From a virus, in IMG/VR virus record IMGVR_UViG_3300045003_000166, positions 1 through 64,000 of that record: 64,000 nucleotides of DNA. One strand, given 5' to 3'. Made by a program: the position numbers and the translations under genes. Shown piece by piece: positions 12,297 to 60,994 of this stretch (within the stretch, counting starts at the first letter, position 1; every line of letters starts with the position of its first letter). Below the pieces are notes generated by a model, which was not told the origin of the DNA, ran no database searches, and saw only the letters and a program-made list of their open reading frames with translations.

Positions 12297-13282
12297 GCCT
12301 TCTCCTCCCCGAACAGCGCGCTTTCCCAGAGGGGCGCGAGGTTCTCGATCGTGTAGTCCTGGGCGCGCAGCCGGGCCGCGTCGCCCATTTGCTCGCGCAG
12401 GTCCGCGTCGTTCAGCAGCAATCCGAGGTACTCGCCCCACTCCTGGGCGGTGGAGGCGAGGAAACCGGTGACACCGTGCACCACCCAGTCCCGGTACGGG
12501 ACGATGGGCGAGGCGACGATCGGAATGCCGAGGAACGCGGCCTCCAGCGCCTTCGTCGCGCCCTTCGCCTCGTTGTAGGGGGTGGAGCGGTAGGGAGCGG
12601 CCCATACGTCGAAGTCGACCGTGTCCAGATATGCCTCGTTGGGCTGGACCCAGCCGGTGTGCCGCCATCCGGGAGCGGTCAGGCCCAGTTTGCGCAGATG
12701 CGGGTAAGGGATGCCGACCGTGTGCACGACTCCGCCGTGGTCCGGTACGGCCTTGAGTGCCTCGAACGCGATCGGCAGCTCGAACACGGTGGAGGAGGTG
12801 CCCGCCCAGCCGACCACCGGCTTCGGGTTCTCGGGGCGCGGCCGGTCCAGGTACTTCGCGGGCAGGCTGTTGGGGATCACCTGGACGTTGTCGCAGTACT
12901 GCTCCAGGATCATCGCGAGCACGTCGCTGCAGACGGTGACGGCGTCCGCGGCGTAGGCGTTCGCCATGAGGCGGGTGCGCACCGTCGGCTCGGAGAAGAA
13001 CCGGTATGCGACCTCGTTGGTCGAGTCCACGTGCCAGTAGTCGTCATCCGCGTCGAACACCGTGCGCACGCCCGGCGCGTGCACCATCCTCGCCCACTGG
13101 GTGGAGGGCTCCGGCGTGCACACCCGCTGTCCGAGGAACGCGTCGCTGTCCTCGTAGCCCTCGCCGATCCGTTGGCCGGCCTGGACGTCGTGGCCCCGTT
13201 CCCGCAGAGCCTGGGCGACGATCTTGGTCCGGTACCACGAACAGCCGGCGTCGTCCGCCGCCCAGAGCCACGCCTTACCCAC
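12293..13282 (-). CDS. GT-B (GT4-like) glycosyltransferase
   Basis: GCSWYR, FDADDDYW, ADAVTVCS, VGWAG, KALEAAFLGIPIVASP motifs. Confidence 0.85.
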   Translation of the reverse strand: MGKAWLWAADDAGCSWYRTKIVAQALRERGHDVQAGQRIGEGYEDSDAFLGQRVCTPEPSTQWARMVHAPGVRTVFDADDDYWHVDSTNEVAYRFFSEPTVRTRLMANAYAADAVTVCSDVLAMILEQYCDNVQVIPNSLPAKYLDRPRPENPKPVVGWAGTSSTVFELPIAFEALKAVPDHGGVVHTVGIPYPHLRKLGLTAPGWRHTGWVQPNEAYLDTVDFDVWAAPYRSTPYNEAKGATKALEAAFLGIPIVASPIVPYRDWVVHGVTGFLASTAQEWGEYLGLLLNDADLREQMGDAARLRAQDYTIENLAPLWESALFGEEKA

Positions 13283-14246
13283 GGGAGGCCAGGTGCCCGG
13301 GCAGCCAGTGCGCGGCGAACCATTCCACCGTGTCGTGGACGCCCAGGCCGAGCGGGACGAGAGCGTCCGGTTCCAGGCCGAGCAGCCGCATCGTCTCGTT
13401 GTCCGCGACCACCCGGGCGCCCGGCGTCTCGCCCGGCCGCATCGGCAGGTGCACCAGCGAGGGCGCGGGGTCGTAGCCGATTTCCCTCGCCTCCTGGATG
13501 ACGAGGTTCGCCACATACGCGACCGTGGCGTGCTCGCTCGGCCCGATCTCGACCACCTGCTCGAGCACGTCGCCCTTCGCGGCGTACTCGAGGGCCTGGA
13601 CCAGGCCGCGCGCCACGTCGGTCACGTAGACGCAGTCGGAGATCTGCTGACCGTCCCCGTACACCTCGATCGGCGTGCCGGTCAGGGCACGGGCGATGAA
13701 CGCGGGCATGATCTTTCGGACCTTGCCCGGCCCGTACGGCGCCGCCATCACCTGCCGCGGCCCGTACGCGTTGACGACGCGCACCTGGTTGAGAGCGAGG
13801 CCGCGGTCCCGCACGAACATGTGGCCAAGGGACTCGACACAGGTCTTGCTTGCCGAATACGGGTTGCTCATCCCGTGGTTGCCGACGCAGATGTTGACGC
13901 ACGGCAGTCCGTATTGGACGCAGGCCTCGAACACGTTCAGACCGGAGGCGACGTTGGTCTGCACCGCGGGCCGCGGGTTGTGCACCGTCTCCTGGGTGCC
14001 GAGCACGGAGGCGAGGTGGATGATCCCGTCCGTGTGTGCGGCCAGCTCGGTGACGGCCACCTCGTCCCGGGTGTCGCCGAGCATCGTCGGGATGTAGGAG
14101 TCGAAATGGCCTGATCCGGGCCGCGATTCGACGGGATGACGCTTGGAGCGGTGGTCGAAGATGACGGGCTCGTGGCCGCGCTTGAGCAGTTCGTCGACGA
14201 CGTGTCCGCCGATGAATCCGGCGCCGCCGGTGACACCGATGCGCAT
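13275..14246 (-). CDS. NAD-dependent nucleotide-sugar epimerase/dehydratase
   Basis: VTGGAGFIG Rossmann motif; YSASK catalytic YxxxK; NAYGP. Confidence 0.92.
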   Translation of the reverse strand: MRIGVTGGAGFIGGHVVDELLKRGHEPVIFDHRSKRHPVESRPGSGHFDSYIPTMLGDTRDEVAVTELAAHTDGIIHLASVLGTQETVHNPRPAVQTNVASGLNVFEACVQYGLPCVNICVGNHGMSNPYSASKTCVESLGHMFVRDRGLALNQVRVVNAYGPRQVMAAPYGPGKVRKIMPAFIARALTGTPIEVYGDGQQISDCVYVTDVARGLVQALEYAAKGDVLEQVVEIGPSEHATVAYVANLVIQEAREIGYDPAPSLVHLPMRPGETPGARVVADNETMRLLGLEPDALVPLGLGVHDTVEWFAAHWLPGHLASRG

Positions 14247-14360
14247 GAACGCTCCGGAAAGTGAGGGGACGGAGTATCAAGTGGAGAATACAGCGCAATG
14301 GACACGGTTCGGGTCGTTCGGGACAATGGCCAAGAAACCGGGCAGGAAGGGCGTGATCGC

Positions 14361-15158
14361 GTGAGGGTCATGTACGACGCGGCGTTCCCGCCGCCCGACC
14401 CGCACCTTGATGTCTGCGCTGGGTACATTGGCGGCGACACGCCCCATGTGTGGACCGATGCCGAATGGAACAGCCAGTCGGCCAGGTGGCGGCTGCCGAT
14501 CTTCACACGGTCGAATCCGACCGATGCGAATCAGGCCGCGAGCGACGCGGCCAGCGCGATCGCCTGGGCGAGAGCGCACGGACAGCCAGCCGGAACGGCG
14601 ATCGCCCTCGACTACGAGACGGCGAAAGACGCGGCGTACCTGACGGCATTCGACGCGGACGTGGTCGCGGCCGGCTGGACTGTGCTGGTGTACGGGTCAC
14701 TGTCCACGGTCTTCCAGAATCCGCGGCCGAGCGCGGGCTACTGGACCGCGTCCTGGACGGGCGCGGCGCACCTTGATGTGGGCGCCGCAGCCACTCAGTG
14801 GGCCAGCGACACCATGCTCGGCAAACCGTACGACCTGTCCGAGGTCACGGACTCACTCAATCTCTGGGATACACAGGAGGCCATGGTGTCGCTCACTCCG
14901 CAAGAGGACAACGAACTGCTCCAGCTGTACAACGCCATGTTCAACGGCGGTTCCTCCATGGGCATCACACCGTCCGGGGCGACGAACAACTCACTGGTCT
15001 CTAAGCTCGACTACCTGATCACCACCCTGGGACAGCTCGCTACGCCGACGGTCGACGCGACCGCCCTGGCCGCAGCACTGGCCGCGAACCCGGCGTTCGT
15101 CCAGGCGGTCGTGCACGGCCTGGCCGTCGAGTTGCACAACGCGACGCCGTCCAGCTGA
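14361..15158 (+). CDS. endolysin, GH25-like/DUF1906 glycoside hydrolase
   Basis: AGYIGG, AIALDYE, WTASW, ATQW and YDLS motifs; followed by a TM protein; start uncertain (14298/14361/14370). Confidence 0.75.
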   Translation: MRVMYDAAFPPPDPHLDVCAGYIGGDTPHVWTDAEWNSQSARWRLPIFTRSNPTDANQAASDAASAIAWARAHGQPAGTAIALDYETAKDAAYLTAFDADVVAAGWTVLVYGSLSTVFQNPRPSAGYWTASWTGAAHLDVGAAATQWASDTMLGKPYDLSEVTDSLNLWDTQEAMVSLTPQEDNELLQLYNAMFNGGSSMGITPSGATNNSLVSKLDYLITTLGQLATPTVDATALAAALAANPAFVQAVVHGLAVELHNATPSS

Positions 15159-15942: not shown

Positions 15943-16737
15943 TCAGGCAGCTGCGGCGACGATCTCGGCCATCGACAGGTCAGCCTTGAAGGTGTGACCC
16001 ACTAACCGCTCAACCGCCAGGTACTCCTGCGCCATGGCCGGGTTGAGACGCGCGGACAGAACGAGCTCCGTACGCCCGGCCAGGACACAGAACATGCACG
16101 ACAAGCGCGGCATCCCGGCGTCGTAAGCCGGGTGGTACGGAAGGCCAGAGCGGCGGATCGTGTCCCAGACCTGCTCCTCTGACCAGTCGAAGATGGGCAG
16201 CCAGCGATCCACGATCCGACGCCCGTTCGTCGCCGCGGCGTCGGGGCCGAAGGGGATCTTCTTGGCGCGCGCCGGAGACTCGGCCGCCCTGATGCCCAGG
16301 CAGTTCAGGATCCTGATCGGGCGGTCCGGGTGTGCGGCGCGGTGGTCGGCGGCCAGTTTCGTCATGATCTTGGCGACCTGGCTGGTCTTCTGATCGGAAG
16401 TGCAGTACCTGGCCTGGCTGGACGGCCATGCCGGAGTCGTGGTGTCGCCCTTCGCCCGGAGGGTGTTGTGGCGCGTCACGACCTGGTCGAGCAGGTCTTC
16501 GGAACGAGCGACGGTCTCGAACCGCAGGCCGTATACCGCGGCCTGCTTCTCGGCAAGTTCGCGCGTTCCCTCCCACTCCACCCGGCCGAGGTCGGCGTGG
16601 ACCACGACGATCCGGTCGCGGGAGACGCCCTCAGCGTCGGCGCGCTCGACTAGGTGGGTGAGCATCGCCTGAGAGTCCTTGCCTGCGCTGGAGTTGATGA
16701 GGATCACGTCGTAGGAAGCGAGGTTCACGGTGGACAT
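15943..16737 (-). CDS. PAPS-reductase-family (PP-loop) protein
   Basis: SAGKDS PP-loop, RYCTSDQK, GIRAAESPAR, HPAY...RLSCMFC. Confidence 0.88.
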   Translation of the reverse strand: MSTVNLASYDVILINSSAGKDSQAMLTHLVERADAEGVSRDRIVVVHADLGRVEWEGTRELAEKQAAVYGLRFETVARSEDLLDQVVTRHNTLRAKGDTTTPAWPSSQARYCTSDQKTSQVAKIMTKLAADHRAAHPDRPIRILNCLGIRAAESPARAKKIPFGPDAAATNGRRIVDRWLPIFDWSEEQVWDTIRRSGLPYHPAYDAGMPRLSCMFCVLAGRTELVLSARLNPAMAQEYLAVERLVGHTFKADLSMAEIVAAAA

Positions 16738-16745
16738 GTCAGGCC

Positions 16746-17096
16746 TCAGACGGCGTAGTGCGCGGACCAGACGGACCACAGGATCGGCAGGTCGGCCTGG
16801 CGGTAGACGGCGACCTCGACCGCGCGCTCCTTGCCCGAACTCGGAGAGACGATCGCCTGCCACATCGTCTTCGGGGCGCGCCCCCGGGTCTCGGTGTACA
16901 GGGCCTTCACCCGCTTGCCGAAGGTGCCCCACACCGACCGCAGCACACCGCCGGACAGGCCGCGTTCCGTCAGGAACGACTCGACGGTGACCGGCTTCGC
17001 GAACACGCCGGCCAGCCGGGCGAAGGGCCGCAGCAGACGGCCGAGCCGGGCCAGGCGCAGCTCGGCGACGCGGGCGCGGATCTCGGGCTGGGTCAT
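16746..17096 (-). CDS. hypothetical protein
   Basis: GAGGAG RBS; downstream of the tandem motif promoter. Confidence 0.6.
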   Translation of the reverse strand: MTQPEIRARVAELRLARLGRLLRPFARLAGVFAKPVTVESFLTERGLSGGVLRSVWGTFGKRVKALYTETRGRAPKTMWQAIVSPSSGKERAVEVAVYRQADLPILWSVWSAHYAV

Positions 17097-17409: not shown

Positions 17410-17536
17410 TGGTTGCCTGCCCCGCCCCACTCCGGCTCACCGGTCTGTGAACAGACGTAGAAGCCCTTCCACTCACCAGTCCCCGCGGCCCGGGCACGGC
17501 CGCAGTGAGGACAAGCAGGAGGCCAGTTGACAGGCA

Positions 17537-17797
17537 TCAGAACTTCACCAGCTGCGTGCTCGAGTACCCCTGGCCGAAGCCGTCCCCGTCGCCCGTCCAC
17601 TCGACGATCGGGTGCTGGACGTCGCTCGAGAACGGGTCCATGTGCACACCCGTCACCACGCCCTCCTGGCCCGAGAGCCGGTGCCTCACCCCGTCACCCA
17701 CCTGGATGGGCGCCTGCGGCGCGGTCTGGGGCGGCGTGTAGGCCGGGTTGCCGGAGCGGTCCCCGGGCGGCTGGTCGGTTGCTACCTTCAGCGTCAC
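17537..17797 (-). CDS. small SH3/Tudor-like protein
   Basis: VGDGVRHRLSGQEGVVTG; paralogue of 49942..50232. Confidence 0.6.
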   Translation of the reverse strand: MTLKVATDQPPGDRSGNPAYTPPQTAPQAPIQVGDGVRHRLSGQEGVVTGVHMDPFSSDVQHPIVEWTGDGDGFGQGYSSTQLVKF

Positions 17798-18201
17798 CGC
17801 AGCCTCCTGGGCGCGTCCGAGACGGCGTTCTGCGTGCCGGCGTAGAGGCCTTCCGGCGTGACCCCGGCCGGCCTAATCGAGTTGGGCGCGACGCCCTGGG
17901 CGAGGGAGGCGTCCTCTCCCGCGAACGCGACGCGCGGCGTGATCCGAGTGGTGTGCGGGTCGCGGTGGTGGCCGACCACCGTCCCCTCCCCCAGGGCGCG
18001 GTGCACGACCCGGGAGCCGACTGCTGGGGTCGGATCGGCGCCGTGCTGGTCCTGGTTCATCTCGGCCGCCCCGCGCGGGTGGTAGGCCTGGTTGAGGGCG
18101 AGCTCCTGGGGGATCGTCGCGCCCAGGTTCAGGCCGCCGGTGGACGGCGCGCCGTCGCCCTGGCTCTGGTACGGGCCGCCGCCCTGGAACTGGGCTCTCA
18201 T
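17794..18201 (-). CDS. SH3/Tudor-like domain protein
   Basis: VGSRVVHRALGEGTVVG; leaderless ATG after TACACT. Confidence 0.55.
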   Translation of the reverse strand: MRAQFQGGGPYQSQGDGAPSTGGLNLGATIPQELALNQAYHPRGAAEMNQDQHGADPTPAVGSRVVHRALGEGTVVGHHRDPHTTRITPRVAFAGEDASLAQGVAPNSIRPAGVTPEGLYAGTQNAVSDAPRRLR

Positions 18202-18401
18202 GTCAACCAGTGTACGTATGAGTCCTGGAAAGGGAACCGCCCCGGACGCGTTCCGTGCGTCCGGGGCGGTGAGGCTTGAGCGGATCCCGTGCCCGTGTCC
18301 GCGCGACTGCTCCGGTGTCGCGTCCACCATCACAGTCGGTTATCCGGGCGCAGTTGCCGGGATTAGTCTGCAGCCGTACCCGACCAGCTTGCGCCTCCGC
18401 G

Positions 18402-18475
18402 TGGCAGGGAGCGGATTTGAACCGCCGACCTCTGGGTTATGAGCCCAGCGAGCTACCGAACTGCTCCACCCTGCT
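18402..18475 (-). tRNA. tRNA-Met(CAU), initiator type
   Basis: Cloverleaf; anticodon arm CTGGG-CTCATAA-CCCAG (3 G-C pairs); 1:72 mismatch; T-loop TTCAAAT; CCA not encoded. Confidence 0.92.
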
Positions 18476-18583
18476 CTGTGAGCCGGATTGCCGCCCCCGG
18501 CTCTACTCGCCCATACACCTCAGCACAGCCCGTCTTCACGGGCTTACCTAGCGAGCCCCACTCAAGAGCTTACCTCACACGAC

Positions 18584-18787
18584 CTAAATCGAAGCGTTGA
18601 AACTGGCAACCGTCAAGAGACCGGATGCCTCCAGGTCCAGTACTCGGTCGATCGCAGCACCCGCGAACGCGGTCTCGTCACCGACCAGCTTGCTCATCGG
18701 AGTGTCCCGTAGGTCGGCGACCTGTGTCGACGCAAGCTCCTCTTCTGGGCGGGGCAGCCTGTCATCGGCCGTGGGCTCTGAGATCAC
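18584..18787 (-). CDS. FxSxx-COOH (FxsA)-like precursor peptide, variant C-terminus FNASI
   Basis: 67 aa; acidic leader with DLRDTPMSKL...AIDRVL and C-terminal VASFNASI, resembling FxsA peptides. Confidence 0.7.
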   Translation of the reverse strand: MISEPTADDRLPRPEEELASTQVADLRDTPMSKLVGDETAFAGAAIDRVLDLEASGLLTVASFNASI

Positions 18788-18797
18788 GTCGACGACC

Positions 18798-20453
18798 CTA
18801 CCCGCGCAGGAAGCCGGAAACGAGCTGAGGCAGGCTGGCGTCGAAACCCGCCACCTGCAGCACGCCCTCGTCCCGCGGGTCCGCGATCGTGTGCCCGGCC
18901 GCGGTCATCGACGCGACGATCAGTCGGGCGTTCGGGTTCCTCGCCGACCGGTACGAGCGCAGTGCCTGGGAGGGGTGCATCTTGCCCGCCCAGGTCTCGT
19001 TGTCGGTCAGGACCAGGAAGCCGTCCGCCACGACGCCCGCTCGCTGCGCCCATGAGAAGGGGAGCGAGAGGTCGGTGCCGCCCCCGGACGGACGCCACGA
19101 CTGGATCTCGCGCAGACTGGTGCGCGCCGTGAGCCGGGAGGCGTGGACACTGGTGTCGACGTCGATGACCTGGACGTTGCCCTTCTCGATCCGGGCCGTG
19201 GTCAGCGCCATGCCGTTCGCGACCTCGTACACGCTGCCCAGCGGCGAACCGCCGAGCGTCATGTGGCTGCTCATCGAGCCGGACGAGTCGACCGCGATCA
19301 CCAGCTTCCTTCCCGACGGCTCGACGTGGCCGAAGGAGAGCTCGAACGCCTCCTCCAGCGCGTCGGAGACGGCGGTGATCGGCGACCAGGTGCGCAGCTT
19401 CGCCTTCGGGTTGGGCTGCGCGGACCCTGAGTTGTAGACCTTCAGGGCGAGGTAGAGGTCCAGCGGGTGGACGCGCGCCTTCGCCAGGGCGCCCGAGTCC
19501 GTCAGCCGCTTCGCCACGTCGCTGACCGAGGATCCCAGCGGGGTGAGGGCGCCGATCCTCGTCATCCGGGCCAGGTTGCGGATCAGGGCCGTCAGGCCCA
19601 CTGTGTGCGCCAGCTCCGCCCAGACCTCCGGCGAGTCCAGCACGCCGTCGTCCAGGAACTCCCACGGCACGCGCAGCGTACGTACGGCTGTCACGGCCTC
19701 GGCCGGACGGGTCACCGACTTGGCGATCCGGTACTTCTCGACGCTCGGCAGCAGCGCGCCCGCCTCCGCCTCGGTGACGGTGCCGGCGAGCCAGCCGAAC
19801 AGCGCCCGGTACGCGGGATCTTCGACGTGCGGCTTCGCGAGCCGGAGCATGTCCTTGAGGGCGAACGGCTCGCCGGAGCCGGTCTTGCGCGCCTTCGCCT
19901 TACACGCCCGGAACGCGACCCGGTCCGCCTCGTCGGACAGGAACCAGTCAGTCAGGGCGGTGCGCATCAGCCGGTTCATCACCGGCTTCGTCCCGCGCCC
20001 CGACGGCTTGCCGCGCAGGTTCTTGTAGTAGCCCCAGAAGTGCGCCAGGTGGTCCGTGGTCCTCGCCACCCGGGGAAGCGCGGCGCGCGCCGCCCGGCGC
20101 GTGTCCAGGTCGCCGGTCGCGACCGCGGCGGCGAGCACGAACAGGGCCGGGAAGTTCTTCGGCGCGCGGGCCGGCTGCGCGGCACTGATCTGGGTGGCCA
20201 GGGCGACCGCGCGCACACCGTCGGCGGTGATCGCGTCGAACACGACCTTCGCGCCCGCGTAGGTGTGCTCCTTCTCCCCCACGTAGTAGGTGCCGCCCGT
20301 GGTGCCGAGGATGACGAAGTCCTCGAGCTTCGTCCACACGTCCTTGGCGAAGGTGAATCCGCCTGCCGAGTTGCGGACCATGTCAGCCTCGCGGCCCAGG
20401 ATCGGCTCGCTCTGCGGCGTACGCACGGTACTGATCGCGGACAGTGCGTCCAT
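18798..20453 (-). CDS. rsr: Ro60/Rsr TROVE-vWA ribonucleoprotein
   Basis: NSAGGFTF, FVILGTTGGTYY, ALIRNLARMT, vWA MIDAS DSSGSM, GGGTDLSLP, TDNETW, AGFDA. Confidence 0.95.
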   Translation of the reverse strand: MDALSAISTVRTPQSEPILGREADMVRNSAGGFTFAKDVWTKLEDFVILGTTGGTYYVGEKEHTYAGAKVVFDAITADGVRAVALATQISAAQPARAPKNFPALFVLAAAVATGDLDTRRAARAALPRVARTTDHLAHFWGYYKNLRGKPSGRGTKPVMNRLMRTALTDWFLSDEADRVAFRACKAKARKTGSGEPFALKDMLRLAKPHVEDPAYRALFGWLAGTVTEAEAGALLPSVEKYRIAKSVTRPAEAVTAVRTLRVPWEFLDDGVLDSPEVWAELAHTVGLTALIRNLARMTRIGALTPLGSSVSDVAKRLTDSGALAKARVHPLDLYLALKVYNSGSAQPNPKAKLRTWSPITAVSDALEEAFELSFGHVEPSGRKLVIAVDSSGSMSSHMTLGGSPLGSVYEVANGMALTTARIEKGNVQVIDVDTSVHASRLTARTSLREIQSWRPSGGGTDLSLPFSWAQRAGVVADGFLVLTDNETWAGKMHPSQALRSYRSARNPNARLIVASMTAAGHTIADPRDEGVLQVAGFDASLPQLVSGFLRG

Positions 20454-20468
20454 GTACGTTCCCTTCTA

Positions 20469-20494
20469 CTCAACCCGGCGAGGTGCCGGATGTG
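20469..20494 (-). promoter_or_regulatory. Ro-binding-site-like hairpin abutting the rsr RBS
   Basis: CACATCCGGC-ACCTC-GCCGGGTTGAG: the same two strands as the Y-RNA stems in swapped order, next to AGAAGGG. Confidence 0.6.
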
Positions 20495-20535
20495 TTGCGT
20501 CCCGCACGCCGTGGTGGATGCGTACGGGCCGAGGA

Positions 20536-20667
20536 GGCGGATGTGGGAGTGAAGACCGGGTTTAAGCGTCTTAGGCCGCTGGACCACCGGACCGGGGAAA
20601 GGCCCGGGCAGGATTCGAACCTGCATCTCTCCTTTGGAAGAGGTAACCGATCTGCGTTCAACCCGCC
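20536..20667 (-). ncRNA. YrlA-like Y RNA, permuted tRNA mimic, UCC loop
   Basis: GGCGGGTTGAA...CACATCCGCC terminal stem; CT-TCC-AA loop; T arm GCAGG-TTCGAAT-CCTGC; loop-closed acceptor stem; D arm. Confidence 0.85.
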
Positions 20668-20722
20668 CGAATTCGTGCTGGTGCCGACCCGTTCGCCTTC
20701 ACCGTGCGCGCGGGGCGGCGGA

Positions 20723-20856
20723 CCGGACGGATGTGGATTTTGGAACCGGGGGAAGTGCTGCCGCTACACCACAGAACCCGTTTCCGGATCCCGGCGGGAT
20801 TCGAACCCGCGCCTTATCTTTACGAGAGATAACCGATCCCTGTTCAACCCGTCCGG
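20723..20856 (-). ncRNA. YrlA-like Y RNA, permuted tRNA mimic, CGU loop
   Basis: CCGGACGGGTTGAA...CACATCCGTCCGG; TATCT-CTCGTAA-AGATA; GCGGG-TTCGAAT-CCCGC; GAAA-capped acceptor stem; D arm. Confidence 0.85.
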
Positions 20857-20914
20857 GTTGCCGTGCTGGTGGTGCTCAAAACCCGGACCCTGAGGGAACC
20901 GGGTGGTGCAAGGT

Positions 20915-21050
20915 GTCCGGATGTGGAGTCGACCACCGGTGTTAAGCGCTCTGCCAATTGAGCTACCGACCTGTTTTACCAGCTCGGGCGGGACTTGAAC
21001 CCGCAACCACTCTCTTAACAGGAGATAACCGACGGTCTTTCAACCCGGAC
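20915..21050 (-). ncRNA. YrlA-like Y RNA, permuted tRNA mimic, GUU loop
   Basis: GTCCGGGTTGAA...CACATCCGGAC; TCTC-CTGTTAA-GAGA; GCGGG-TTCAAGT-CCCGC; D arm TAGCTCAATTGGCAGAGC. Confidence 0.88.
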
Positions 21051-21063
21051 GAAGTCTGTGCGG

Positions 21064-21134
21064 CGGAACGGATGTGGAGTGCTGCTACCGGATCAATCGC
21101 CAAAAGATAACCGGCGGCGTTTCAACCCGTTCCG
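21064..21134 (-). ncRNA. short Y RNA without tRNA-like domain
   Basis: CGGAACGGGTTGAA...CGGTTATCT...CCGG...CCACATCCGTTCCG; starts at the predicted +1 of the motif promoter. Confidence 0.75.
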
Positions 21135-21140
21135 TGGAAC

Positions 21141-21170
21141 ACGCTACAGGGCGGCGTGACTATCCGTCAA
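21141..21170 (-). promoter_or_regulatory. motif promoter driving the Y-RNA/rsr operon
   Basis: TTGACGGATAGTCAC, 18-nt spacer, TAGCGT. Confidence 0.75.
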
Positions 21171-21518
21171 CTCAATTTTGTCGGCATCAGTCAGTCCGCC
21201 CGCAATCATGGCGCGCGTCTTGCGTGACACCGACACCAACAGGTCGCCCTCGTACTTCACGCGGACCACCGCGACCAGCACGGCGTCGCCGTACACGGGT
21301 GACAGGGTCAGCGCCTCGGCTCGGCGGTTGAACGGGACGACGGCATCGAGCGGGTGGGAGTGCAGGTCCAGGAACGCGCCGCGGTCCGTGCCCACCTGCA
21401 CATGCGGACCGGGCGCCAGCCGGCGCACGACACGCCGCGCCCAACCCTGGAAGGGAGGAAGCCAGACAGAACGCACCGGCTTGCCGTCGTCGGCCGGGAT
21501 GAGGAGGGCGCGCATCAT
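21144..21518 (-). CDS. hypothetical protein (DUF3846-like)
   Basis: ALLIPAD...PFNRRA...VYGDAVL pattern. Confidence 0.5.
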   Translation of the reverse strand: MMRALLIPADDGKPVRSVWLPPFQGWARRVVRRLAPGPHVQVGTDRGAFLDLHSHPLDAVVPFNRRAEALTLSPVYGDAVLVAVVRVKYEGDLLVSVSRKTRAMIAGGLTDADKIELTDSHAAL

Positions 21519-59317: not shown

Positions 59318-60994
59318 GTGGCCAAGGGGCAGCAGCGAGCCGCCAACCCCGACCTGATGGTGGGGTTGCAGCAGCTCGCCAACGGGCTGCCCGACTACCA
59401 CCGCGCAGAGATGTACTACGAGTGCACCATGCCGGAGTTTTTCGCCAGCATCCGGCTGCGGCGCGCGCTCGAGCGCACCGGTGTCTCCTTCCGCTTCAAC
59501 CTCGCCTCCACCCCGGTCGATGTCATGGCGGACCGGCTGGAGATCGCCTCCCTCACCTGCCCCCAGGATGAGCAGGCCGACAACGCGCTGCAGGCGATCT
59601 GGCAGCACAACCTCATGGACCTGACGGCCGCGTCGATGCACCTGCGGGCCGGCGAATTCGGCGACGCCTACGCGATCGTCTGGCCGTCCGCCCCCGAGCC
59701 GGACGAGGACGACGAAGGCGACGACGCCGGGAACGGGGCCAACGACGCCGCGATCGAGCAGTCCCGCCGCGCGCTCTCCCAGCGCGGCAGCTCGGCGTTC
59801 GCCACACGCGGCGTGCACCAGGTGCCGGACGACGTGGACACCGACGTCGACATCTTCTACAACTCAGCGAAGACGACCCGGATCATCTACGACGCCGACA
59901 ACCCGCGGGTGAAGCGGTTCGCGATCAAGAAGTGGACCGAGCCCGCCCCCCTGGGTTCGAAGGCGAAGCCGCAGACCCGGGTCAACCTCTACTACCGCGG
60001 CCGGATCGAGAAGTACATCTCGGCGCCCAACTCGAAGGGCAACCAGCTCAAGGACTGGCTGCGCTACGAGGACCCGGAGGACGGCGGCTGGCCGATCGAG
60101 AACCCGTTCGGCGAAATCCCGGTATTCCACTTCCGCACCGAGATGCCGTACGGGTCGCCCGAGCACCGCGGCGCGTACGGGCCGCAGGACGCCATCAACA
60201 AGCTGATGATCACGCAGATGGCGACCATCGACTACCACGGCTTCCCGCAGCGCTACGTGATCGCCGACCCGGGCAACATGAGCGACGAGCTCGCCGACTT
60301 CGACACCGACGACGACATCAACCGCTTCGAGGACACCGGCCACGACTCCACCCTGCGCTCCGGCCCGGGTGAAGTCTGGTGGCTCAACGGCGTGCGCCAG
60401 GCCGGCCAGTTCAACCCGCCCAACCCCGAGGTGTTCCTGCAGCCGCTGGACACCTACACCCGGATGATGGCGCAGATCACTCGCACGCCGCTGCACTACT
60501 TCGATCCCCAGGTCTACAGCCGGTACGCGCCGTCCGGCGAGTCGATCCGGGCGAGCGAGGTGCCGCTGCTGAAGAAGGTGCGCAAGCGCCAGATCGCGTA
60601 CGGATCGGCGTGGCTGGAAATCTTCCGCTTCGCCCTGAAGGTGGCCGGCATCACCACCGACCCGGCGCTGGATCTGCGCTGGGTACCGGCGGCCACGATC
60701 GACGACCAGGTCGGCTGGGCGATGATCATGCAGAAGCAGCAGGCCGGCGTCCCCGTCCGGCAGACGCTGCTGGAAGCCGGCTACGACCCGGACATGGTGG
60801 ACTCCTGGCTGGTGAACGGCGAAGGCCTCGAGCAGCGGGTGAACCTCCTGTCCAAGATCGCCACCGCCGCCCAGGCGCTGGGTACCGCGACCGGGTTCGG
60901 CGTGCTCGAGCCGACCGACGTCAACAAGGTGATCATGAGCGTGCTCGAGCTTGACGACAAGACACAACCCGAACTCACCGTGGGGACGGCGTGA
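59318..60994 (+). CDS. portal protein (SPP1 gp6-like)
   Basis: ENPFGEIPVFHF, QDAINK, FPQRY, PSGESIRASE; follows the terminase. Confidence 0.92.
   Translation: MAKGQQRAANPDLMVGLQQLANGLPDYHRAEMYYECTMPEFFASIRLRRALERTGVSFRFNLASTPVDVMADRLEIASLTCPQDEQADNALQAIWQHNLMDLTAASMHLRAGEFGDAYAIVWPSAPEPDEDDEGDDAGNGANDAAIEQSRRALSQRGSSAFATRGVHQVPDDVDTDVDIFYNSAKTTRIIYDADNPRVKRFAIKKWTEPAPLGSKAKPQTRVNLYYRGRIEKYISAPNSKGNQLKDWLRYEDPEDGGWPIENPFGEIPVFHFRTEMPYGSPEHRGAYGPQDAINKLMITQMATIDYHGFPQRYVIADPGNMSDELADFDTDDDINRFEDTGHDSTLRSGPGEVWWLNGVRQAGQFNPPNPEVFLQPLDTYTRMMAQITRTPLHYFDPQVYSRYAPSGESIRASEVPLLKKVRKRQIAYGSAWLEIFRFALKVAGITTDPALDLRWVPAATIDDQVGWAMIMQKQQAGVPVRQTLLEAGYDPDMVDSWLVNGEGLEQRVNLLSKIATAAQALGTATGFGVLEPTDVNKVIMSVLELDDKTQPELTVGTA

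Follow-up and report, generated by a model that had tools for sequence, protein, structure and literature searches.

What is the gene for an FxSxx-COOH-like peptide, of the FxsA precursor type of peptide that is made on ribosomes and modified after translation (RiPP), doing in a phage genome in which no enzyme for its maturation was found, and why does that peptide carry alanine at the position where the demonstrated chemistry of the family uses serine? The question is raised by a 67-codon open reading frame (ORF) in IMG/VR virus record IMGVR_UViG_3300045003_000166 (72,563 bases, CheckV completeness 94%; herein referred to as G000), of which bases 1–64000 are the stretch of DNA analyzed here (the window). 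We conclude with high confidence that the ORF product is a divergent member of the FxsA superfamily and that it is an orphan within its phage. Far more tentatively, we propose that it acts on host proteins.

The peptide gene and its family

The features of the gene on which the argument turns are as follows.

18584..18787, minus strand: FxsA-type precursor-like peptide gene of the FNASI clade (ORF listing and translation)
18686..18727, minus strand: leader motif, residues 21–34 (conservation in alignments A2 and A3; leader-only hhalign)
18587..18652, minus strand: conserved C-terminal core, residues 46–67, ending G-L-L-T-V-A-S-F-N-A-S-I-COOH (A2; codon comparison)

The ORF opens with GTG at 18787 and closes with a TAG stop at 18584–18586, and its 67-residue product is acidic (13 D/E vs. 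5 K/R; isoelectric point 4.05) with VASFNASI at the C-terminus; position, length, acidity and ending are as stated in a preliminary description made from the DNA letters and their translations. A search with this single sequence returned 14 homologues of 60–67 aa, all from independent metagenome contigs, and when 1.84 billion representatives were searched with a profile, 16 matched at E ≤ 0.001, 14 of them short peptides. Two longer proteins, P0029 (1161 aa) and P0030 (535 aa), matched mid-profile in seven and four stretches (E 3.2e-6 and 1.3e-5); a repeated motif resembling the leader may account for these stretches, or else low complexity. Searched against a 5.8-billion-protein library, the profile listed 40 clusters of the same clade, 57–85 aa long, at E 4.5e-26 to 4.8e-14. 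The alignment of 26 clade members (A2) has a variable N-terminus followed by invariant L50, F63, N64 and A65, with S21, D25, L34, G56, L57, L58, S66 and I67 conserved in at least 90% of rows.

Several comparisons place this clade within the FxSxx-COOH family. The preliminary description had called the peptide FxSxx-COOH-like, and the hidden Markov model of that family, TIGR04268, does align with it from end to end (profile positions 1–44 of 44 on residues 24–67, reaching the last residue), although at 16.2 bits (E 0.0094) the match lies under the family cut-off of 28; a six-frame search of the whole record with the same model gave 15.3 bits. Half of the clade alignment (13 of 26 members) also matches TIGR04268 at E ≤ 10, with a best E of 1.3e-4. 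The model of the SjiA subfamily (NF040585, cut-off 75 bits) did not match the window peptide and matched one of the 26 members weakly (E 0.0027). Conversely, in the 5.8-billion library the clade profile reaches proteins that their sources (JGI/NCBI) name FXSXX-COOH, including P0044 (E 3.8e-7) and P0048 (E 1.3e-4). Eighteen canonical FXSXX-COOH proteins gathered with the A2 profile make up a second alignment (A3), and because 17 of the 18 match TIGR04268 independently (best E 4e-10), we regard them as a bona fide comparison set.

Alignment of the two profiles with hhalign gave 99.0% probability over 61 columns (E 5.7e-18). The similarity extends to the leader, since the two groups still align when the last 10 residues (97.7%, E 2.5e-12) or the last 22 residues (97.1%, E 5.1e-11) are cut away, and both contain the motif S-x-V-x-D-[LV]-R-x-x-P-L-x-x-L, which is presumably the part recognized by the maturation machinery. 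For residues 21–34 of the window's peptide it is written S-x-x-V-x-D-L-R-D-x-P-[LM]-x-x-L. A leader without similarity, which the preliminary description had named as a ground for refutation, is thus not what the comparison gave. By sequence, then, the peptide is a sub-threshold but genuine FxSxx-COOH homologue, leader included, and the FNASI group adds to a known peptide family a new clade that scores under the threshold and has an unusual carrier.

Whether so short an ORF is a gene at all can be addressed by comparison with the homologue at L002 9947–10147, in virus record G001, which is the only homologous DNA that was obtained. Between the two copies 19 codons are identical, 16 differ synonymously only and 28 differ in the encoded amino acid. 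Over the last 22 codons there are 10 synonymous changes to two amino-acid changes, which indicates selection on the protein. The proposal that the ORF is nonfunctional, either a chance reading frame or a decaying remnant in the spacer between the rsr gene and a tRNA gene, would draw on the absence of a strong Shine–Dalgarno sequence before the GTG, on the sub-threshold family match and on a low G+C content at third codon positions (GC3), which is 0.72, compared with a phage-gene median of 0.90 (called genes no shorter than 100 codons, from a set filtered at GC3 > 0.78), 0.94 in rsr and 0.94 in the L002 copy. We give this proposal almost no credence: 40 clusters conserve the peptide with an invariant core, the core changes relative to L002 are biased toward synonymous ones, G+C by codon position (0.68/0.47/0.72, that is, GC2 < GC1 < GC3) is consistent with the peptide frame, and within the ORF Rfam gave nothing at E ≤ 10 (the closest match, to CRISPR-DR28 at 18522–18545, is at chance level, E 0.95). 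The predicted RNA fold of the spacer at 18476–18600 is unremarkable (z −1.37). The window copy is rich in A/T-ending codons relative to the L002 copy, though the two genomes are similar in G+C (68% vs. 70.5%), and its low GC3 may reflect recent acquisition from a lower-GC source. Taken at the level of sequence, the ORF is a translated and selected gene for a divergent member of the FxsA/FxSxx-COOH superfamily.

Orphan carriage and the altered core

The preliminary description had noted that no radical S-adenosylmethionine (rSAM), HExxH or TPR gene occurs in the window. That statement extends to the whole 72,563-base record: G000 has no match to PF04055 (Radical_SAM) at E ≤ 10 and none to TIGR04269 (FxsB) or TIGR04267 (HExxH modifier) at E ≤ 1, and neither G000 nor G001 has a match to TPR_12 (PF13424) or NB-ARC (PF00931), all of these models having matched in control genomes. 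Cognate maturase genes beyond the window, which the preliminary description had named as a ground for refutation, were looked for and not found in a record estimated to be 94% complete.

The carrier is most probably an uncultured actinophage from soil metagenomes, as its portal protein (59318..60994) shares 29–39% identity with the portals that phages of Streptomyces, Arthrobacter and Microbacterium encode and a megablast of 17500–21500 against 50,697 cultured-phage records found no match. A look-up of sequencing runs listed two soil-metagenome DNA data sets, which may be the origin of this DNA, and no RNA data set. Cultured phages also gave no match to the window peptide by tblastn (the same 50,697 records, E ≤ 1), and plasmids searched by tblastn with P0048, a canonical FxsA, yielded a single match, at chance level (E 0.6). 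Pattern scans for the clade, two in 185,579 species genomes and two in JGI metagenome contigs, confirmed no relative; as they had no positive control and missed several JGI-sourced members, these blanks are weak and give no ground for taking bacteria to be without the clade.

A second phage also carries the FNASI clade. The locus L002 lies in G001, a virus record of 127.5 kb reported as 100% complete, in which the peptide gene has regulators beside it and a serine integrase (phrog_95, 2.6e-75) at a distance of about 2.4 kb; a protein identical to the L002 peptide is labeled by NCBI as coming from a Trebonia sp. metagenome-assembled genome (MAG). Long ORFs downstream in G001 are by appearance putative, unconfirmed structural or lysis genes. 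Only 7 of 127 called ORFs are common to G000 and G001, at 25–52% identity, so the two are unrelated phages that carry the clade independently; DNA context was available for these two of the 40 clade members (the window and L002).

Three more virus records hold orphan FxsA-like genes of the canonical type (L003 in G002, L004 in G003 and L005 in G004), and PF04055, TIGR04269 and TIGR04267 are without a match in G001–G004. At L003 (9759–10402, plus strand) three FxsA-like genes with the endings FQSSI, FNSSL and FNASL stand in tandem, in the middle of 10 arrayed tRNA genes; the record is 119.8 kb long and has terminal repeats. In G004, a 45.8-kb virus fragment, two adjoining genes (L005/L007, 13862–14226) end in FNASL and FQSYI, and one of them exceeds the TIGR04268 cut-off at 28.4 bits. 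Orphan FxsA genes on phages are thus a recurring and apparently unpublished theme: we found no published description of phage-encoded FxSxx peptides in the literature searched, and the passages of PMC7159879 on FxSxx systems make no mention of them.

The second part of the question concerns the core. MscB, an rSAM-SPASM enzyme of the FxsB family (IPR026335), joins C4 of Phe to C-beta of Ser at i/i+2, according to the account of this enzyme in PMC11002830. The window peptide lacks a C-terminal F-x-S-x-x-COOH: it ends F-N-A-S-I, with Ala65 at i+2 from the Phe and Ser at i+3. Members of the FNASI clade (ending ...GLLTVASFNASI) therefore have Ala in place of the Ser that MscB cross-links to Phe, and the F-N-A triplet is invariant in all 26 aligned members and in all 40 clade rows of the tree described below.

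The preliminary description was right in seeing Ala at the acceptor position, but the alteration is not special to this copy. We surveyed the endings of 164 fetched family proteins of at most 160 aa, a set shaped by two profile queries, of which 163 bear the motif. The endings are FNASL (43), FNASI (39), FNSSI (36), FNSAI (24), FNSAL (7), FNSSL (4), FNATI (3) and eight singletons, so that F-N-A-S-[IL] accounts for 82 of the 163. At the two positions that follow F-[NQT], 82 proteins have AS, 42 SS, 33 SA, three AT, and one each SG, AV and AA; Ser or Thr is present at +2 or +3 in 161. Some F-N-A proteins bear the source name FXSXX-COOH, and in G002 an F-N-A copy stands in tandem with F-x-S copies. 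Alanine is fixed in the FNASI clade and frequent across roughly one half of the superfamily sample.

A quick maximum-likelihood tree of the last 58 residues (160 rows, from 166 fetched proteins after removal of four that were too long or lacked the motif and of two duplicates after trimming) has many unresolved forks. Within it the window's clade comprises 40 rows (SH-aLRT support 99), all F-N-A, and the tree as a whole falls into two halves, with F-N-A in 80 of 85 rows of one and F-N-S in 67 of 75 rows of the other. The six NCBI/UniRef peptides examined all end in FNSSI and lie within a 57-row F-x-S clade (SH-aLRT 96), their sources being Microtetraspora, Planobispora, Planomonospora, Nonomuraea, Planotetraspora and a 1.27-Mb contig, whereas among the fetched proteins F-N-A forms come from metagenome contigs or MAGs only.

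This deep split in the tree raises a different explanation, namely that the F-N-A-S half is a peptide system of its own, whose members are processed by another host enzyme (for example, at the Ser at i+3) or stay unmodified, and that the phage copy is cargo. That one of the positions +2 and +3 nearly always holds Ser or Thr would fit an acceptor moved by one residue, the restriction of the named-organism peptides to FNSSI agrees with a separate distribution, and the position of the G001 gene close to a serine integrase and among regulators is typical of cargo expressed in the lysogen. We nonetheless consider a separate system unlikely: the leader motif, which is expected to specify the maturase, is common to both halves; the F-Q-S, F-N-S and F-N-A copies that stand together in one phage suggest a shared pathway; neither G000 nor G001 showed a candidate for another enzyme; and the split itself rests on 58 columns with many unresolved forks. 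The extension of this idea, in which the cargo product would be a signal, exclusion factor or regulator for the infected cell or lysogen, is in our judgment doubtful to the same degree.

The rsr neighbourhood

Three neighbouring features bear on how the peptide gene might be expressed and on whether it belongs to a larger unit.

18798..20453, minus strand: rsr, Ro60-like protein (TROVE and vWA domains), 551 aa, upstream neighbour (Pfam, NCBIfam, phrog_850)
18401..18475, minus strand: tRNA-Met (CAT), 108 nucleotides downstream of the peptide gene (ARAGORN; Rfam 62.4 bits, E 2.4e-12)
20926..21032, minus strand: YrlA-like (Y RNA-like) element upstream of rsr (RF02553, 40.8 bits vs. a gathering threshold of 69, E 8.8e-7, model positions 1–114)

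The rsr product matches vWA_Ro60 (1.6e-42), TROVE (8.2e-19) and NF041674 (1e-103; 347.6 bits vs. a cut-off of 900), and is a divergent Ro60 homologue. The peptide gene lies downstream of rsr, as the preliminary description says, its start 10 nucleotides from the rsr stop codon on the same strand, and a promoter/terminator scan found nothing promoter-like or terminator-like between the two genes, which makes it plausible, as far as the DNA can tell, that the peptide is cotranscribed with rsr.

The spacing and the shared strand would also suit a peptide that is an accessory of the phage Ro/Y-RNA module, binding Rsr (e.g., through its vWA domain) or serving RNA surveillance or tRNA handling. To this may be added that a vWA protein also occurs in host Fxs loci, in the passages of PMC7159879 that describe them, as a vWA domain does in Rsr, and that FxsA-like genes lie inside the tRNA array of another phage (G002). 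An accessory role of this kind is, however, very improbable. The pairing with rsr is not conserved, because the second, unrelated phage record carries the peptide without rsr: no TROVE gene occurs anywhere in the 127.5 kb of G001. No tRNA gene was found within the fetched flanks of L002, L004 or L005 (within 10 kb in the case of G001). The island of Ro protein, Y RNA and tRNA in which the preliminary description had placed the peptide is therefore not a conserved unit. A predicted complex of full-length Rsr with the peptide (A2) scored 0.00 in both runs, made without controls, and is evidence in neither direction.

In the tRNA-Met the first acceptor pair is left open (A1 opposite C72 in the cmscan alignment) and three G-C pairs adjoin the anticodon loop, which we take to be features of initiator tRNAs; the earlier label of tRNA-fMet is supported to that extent. 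A second, weaker YrlA match lies at 20550–20653 on the minus strand (20.4 bits). ARAGORN further calls tRNA-Gly(tcc) at 20599–20674 and tRNA-Thr(cgt) at 20786–20859, both upstream of rsr on the minus strand; the Rfam tRNA model gives the latter only 25.6 bits (gathering threshold 29) and does not list the former. The row of elements at 20550–21032 may consist of Y-RNA-like tRNA mimics in tandem and not of tRNAs that work as such. Auxiliary-type genes nearby encode a nucleotide-sugar epimerase (13275–14246; phrog_540, 1.5e-49), an Rv2525c-like glycoside-hydrolase-like protein (14298–15158) and a PAPS-reductase-like protein (15943–16932; phrog_424, 7.2e-33).

A putative host-directed role and its place among known systems

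In predicted conflict systems of actinobacteria, an rSAM-SPASM enzyme and an HExxH protein accompany FxSxx peptides, along with a vWA-TPR protein and a TIR-AP-ATPase-TPR effector, and the passages of that study dealing with these systems propose that the processed peptide is a toxin or a signal (Kaur, Burroughs, Iyer, Aravind 2020, PMC7159879). Set against this background, the finding of no phage-encoded partner means that the peptide would have to act on host proteins. We hypothesize that the phage expresses it during infection, probably on the rsr transcript; that its conserved leader would dock it onto the Fxs maturation enzymes of the host; and that its free C-terminus could engage the normal reader of the host peptide, that is, the TPR-bearing vWA or TIR-AP-ATPase proteins. 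The near-invariance of the last 12 residues suggests that the core itself, and not the leader alone, would contact a conserved target. Such a look-alike might keep a peptide-gated system quiet or misdirect it, by either of two routes: as a surrogate ligand matured by the host, or as a dead-end competitor on the maturase or the sensor.

We offer this host-directed mimic, or counter-defence, mechanism as a possibility that we would not expect to prevail, and we hold the full statement, that of an orphan phage FxsA homologue with its mechanism included, to be finely balanced, tilting slightly toward doubt. A narrower form, in which the F-N-A peptides are phage-adapted antagonists of a host immune RiPP, the Ala substitution blocking the cyclophane while the maturase or TPR sensor is occupied, strikes us as improbable.

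Several observations weigh against a host-directed FxsA homologue. The sole NCBIfam match of the peptide falls short of its cut-off, and the PF27839 mark of the precomputed library is absent from 40 of 40 clade members and present in many canonical proteins (the Pfam copy searched here has no PF27839 model, and the PF27839-marked P0048 and P0118 went unmatched there too). The GC3 of the gene is low for its phage. With Ala at i+2, the Phe–Ser chemistry demonstrated for the family is impossible as described, and the FNASI clade may have a different partner altogether. Clade members also occur on long contigs (250 kb, 43 kb and 23.5 kb), and cognate enzymes may lie beside some of these.

The locus matters beyond this phage because what FxSxx-COOH peptides do, and what the vWA-MoxR/TIR-AP-ATPase loci that contain them do, is known from genomic prediction only. 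Host molecules that a phage must control often have copies in phage genomes, and a conserved phage copy without enzymes speaks for the peptide as a control point in a host system relevant to phages. The FNASI clade, moreover, varies the acceptor site naturally, with Ala at i+2 and Ser at i+3, and can show whether the cyclophane is needed for the effect, and it puts a question to RiPP enzymology, namely whether enzymes of the FxsB type accept Ala or shift register. If the clade were an antagonist lineage, a TIR-STAND abortive-infection system would be disarmed by what would be the first anti-defence protein to mimic a RiPP precursor, and a direct experimental handle on the function of Fxs/VMAP systems would be at hand.

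Among known systems, the closest are the FxsA/FxSxx-COOH precursors (TIGR04268; NF040585; PF27839), with which the window peptide shares a length of 57–67 aa, an acidic variable N-terminus, the leader motif and an aromatic A-[AS]-F-N-x-x-[IL] exactly at the free C-terminus. It differs from them in its sub-threshold score, in the Ala at i+2, in being encoded by a phage and in the absence of any FxsB, HExxH, TPR or NB-ARC gene from the record. The approach to the core differs as well: the FNASI clade has R-V-L-D-L-E-A-x-G-L-L-T-V-A-S before F-N-A-S-I, whereas canonical members have R-V-L-P-x(5-6)-V-A-V-A-A before F-N-S-S-I. The VMAP-ternary (vWA-MoxR) conflict systems, as described in the passages of PMC7159879 concerned with them, use the same class of peptide, and their proposed role frames the mechanism put forward here; they have their own enzymes, vWA-TPR and TIR-AP-ATPase proteins, whereas the phage has the peptide gene only. 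Nearest in setting are the other phage orphans (G002–G004), which are likewise small FxsA-type genes in actinophage-like records without an rSAM gene, some of them beside tRNA genes. These are of the canonical P-V-A-A-F-[NQ]-[SA]-[SY]-[IL] type and two reach the TIGR04268 cut-off, whereas the window's clade is a separate group (40 rows, SH-aLRT 99) that scores below it.

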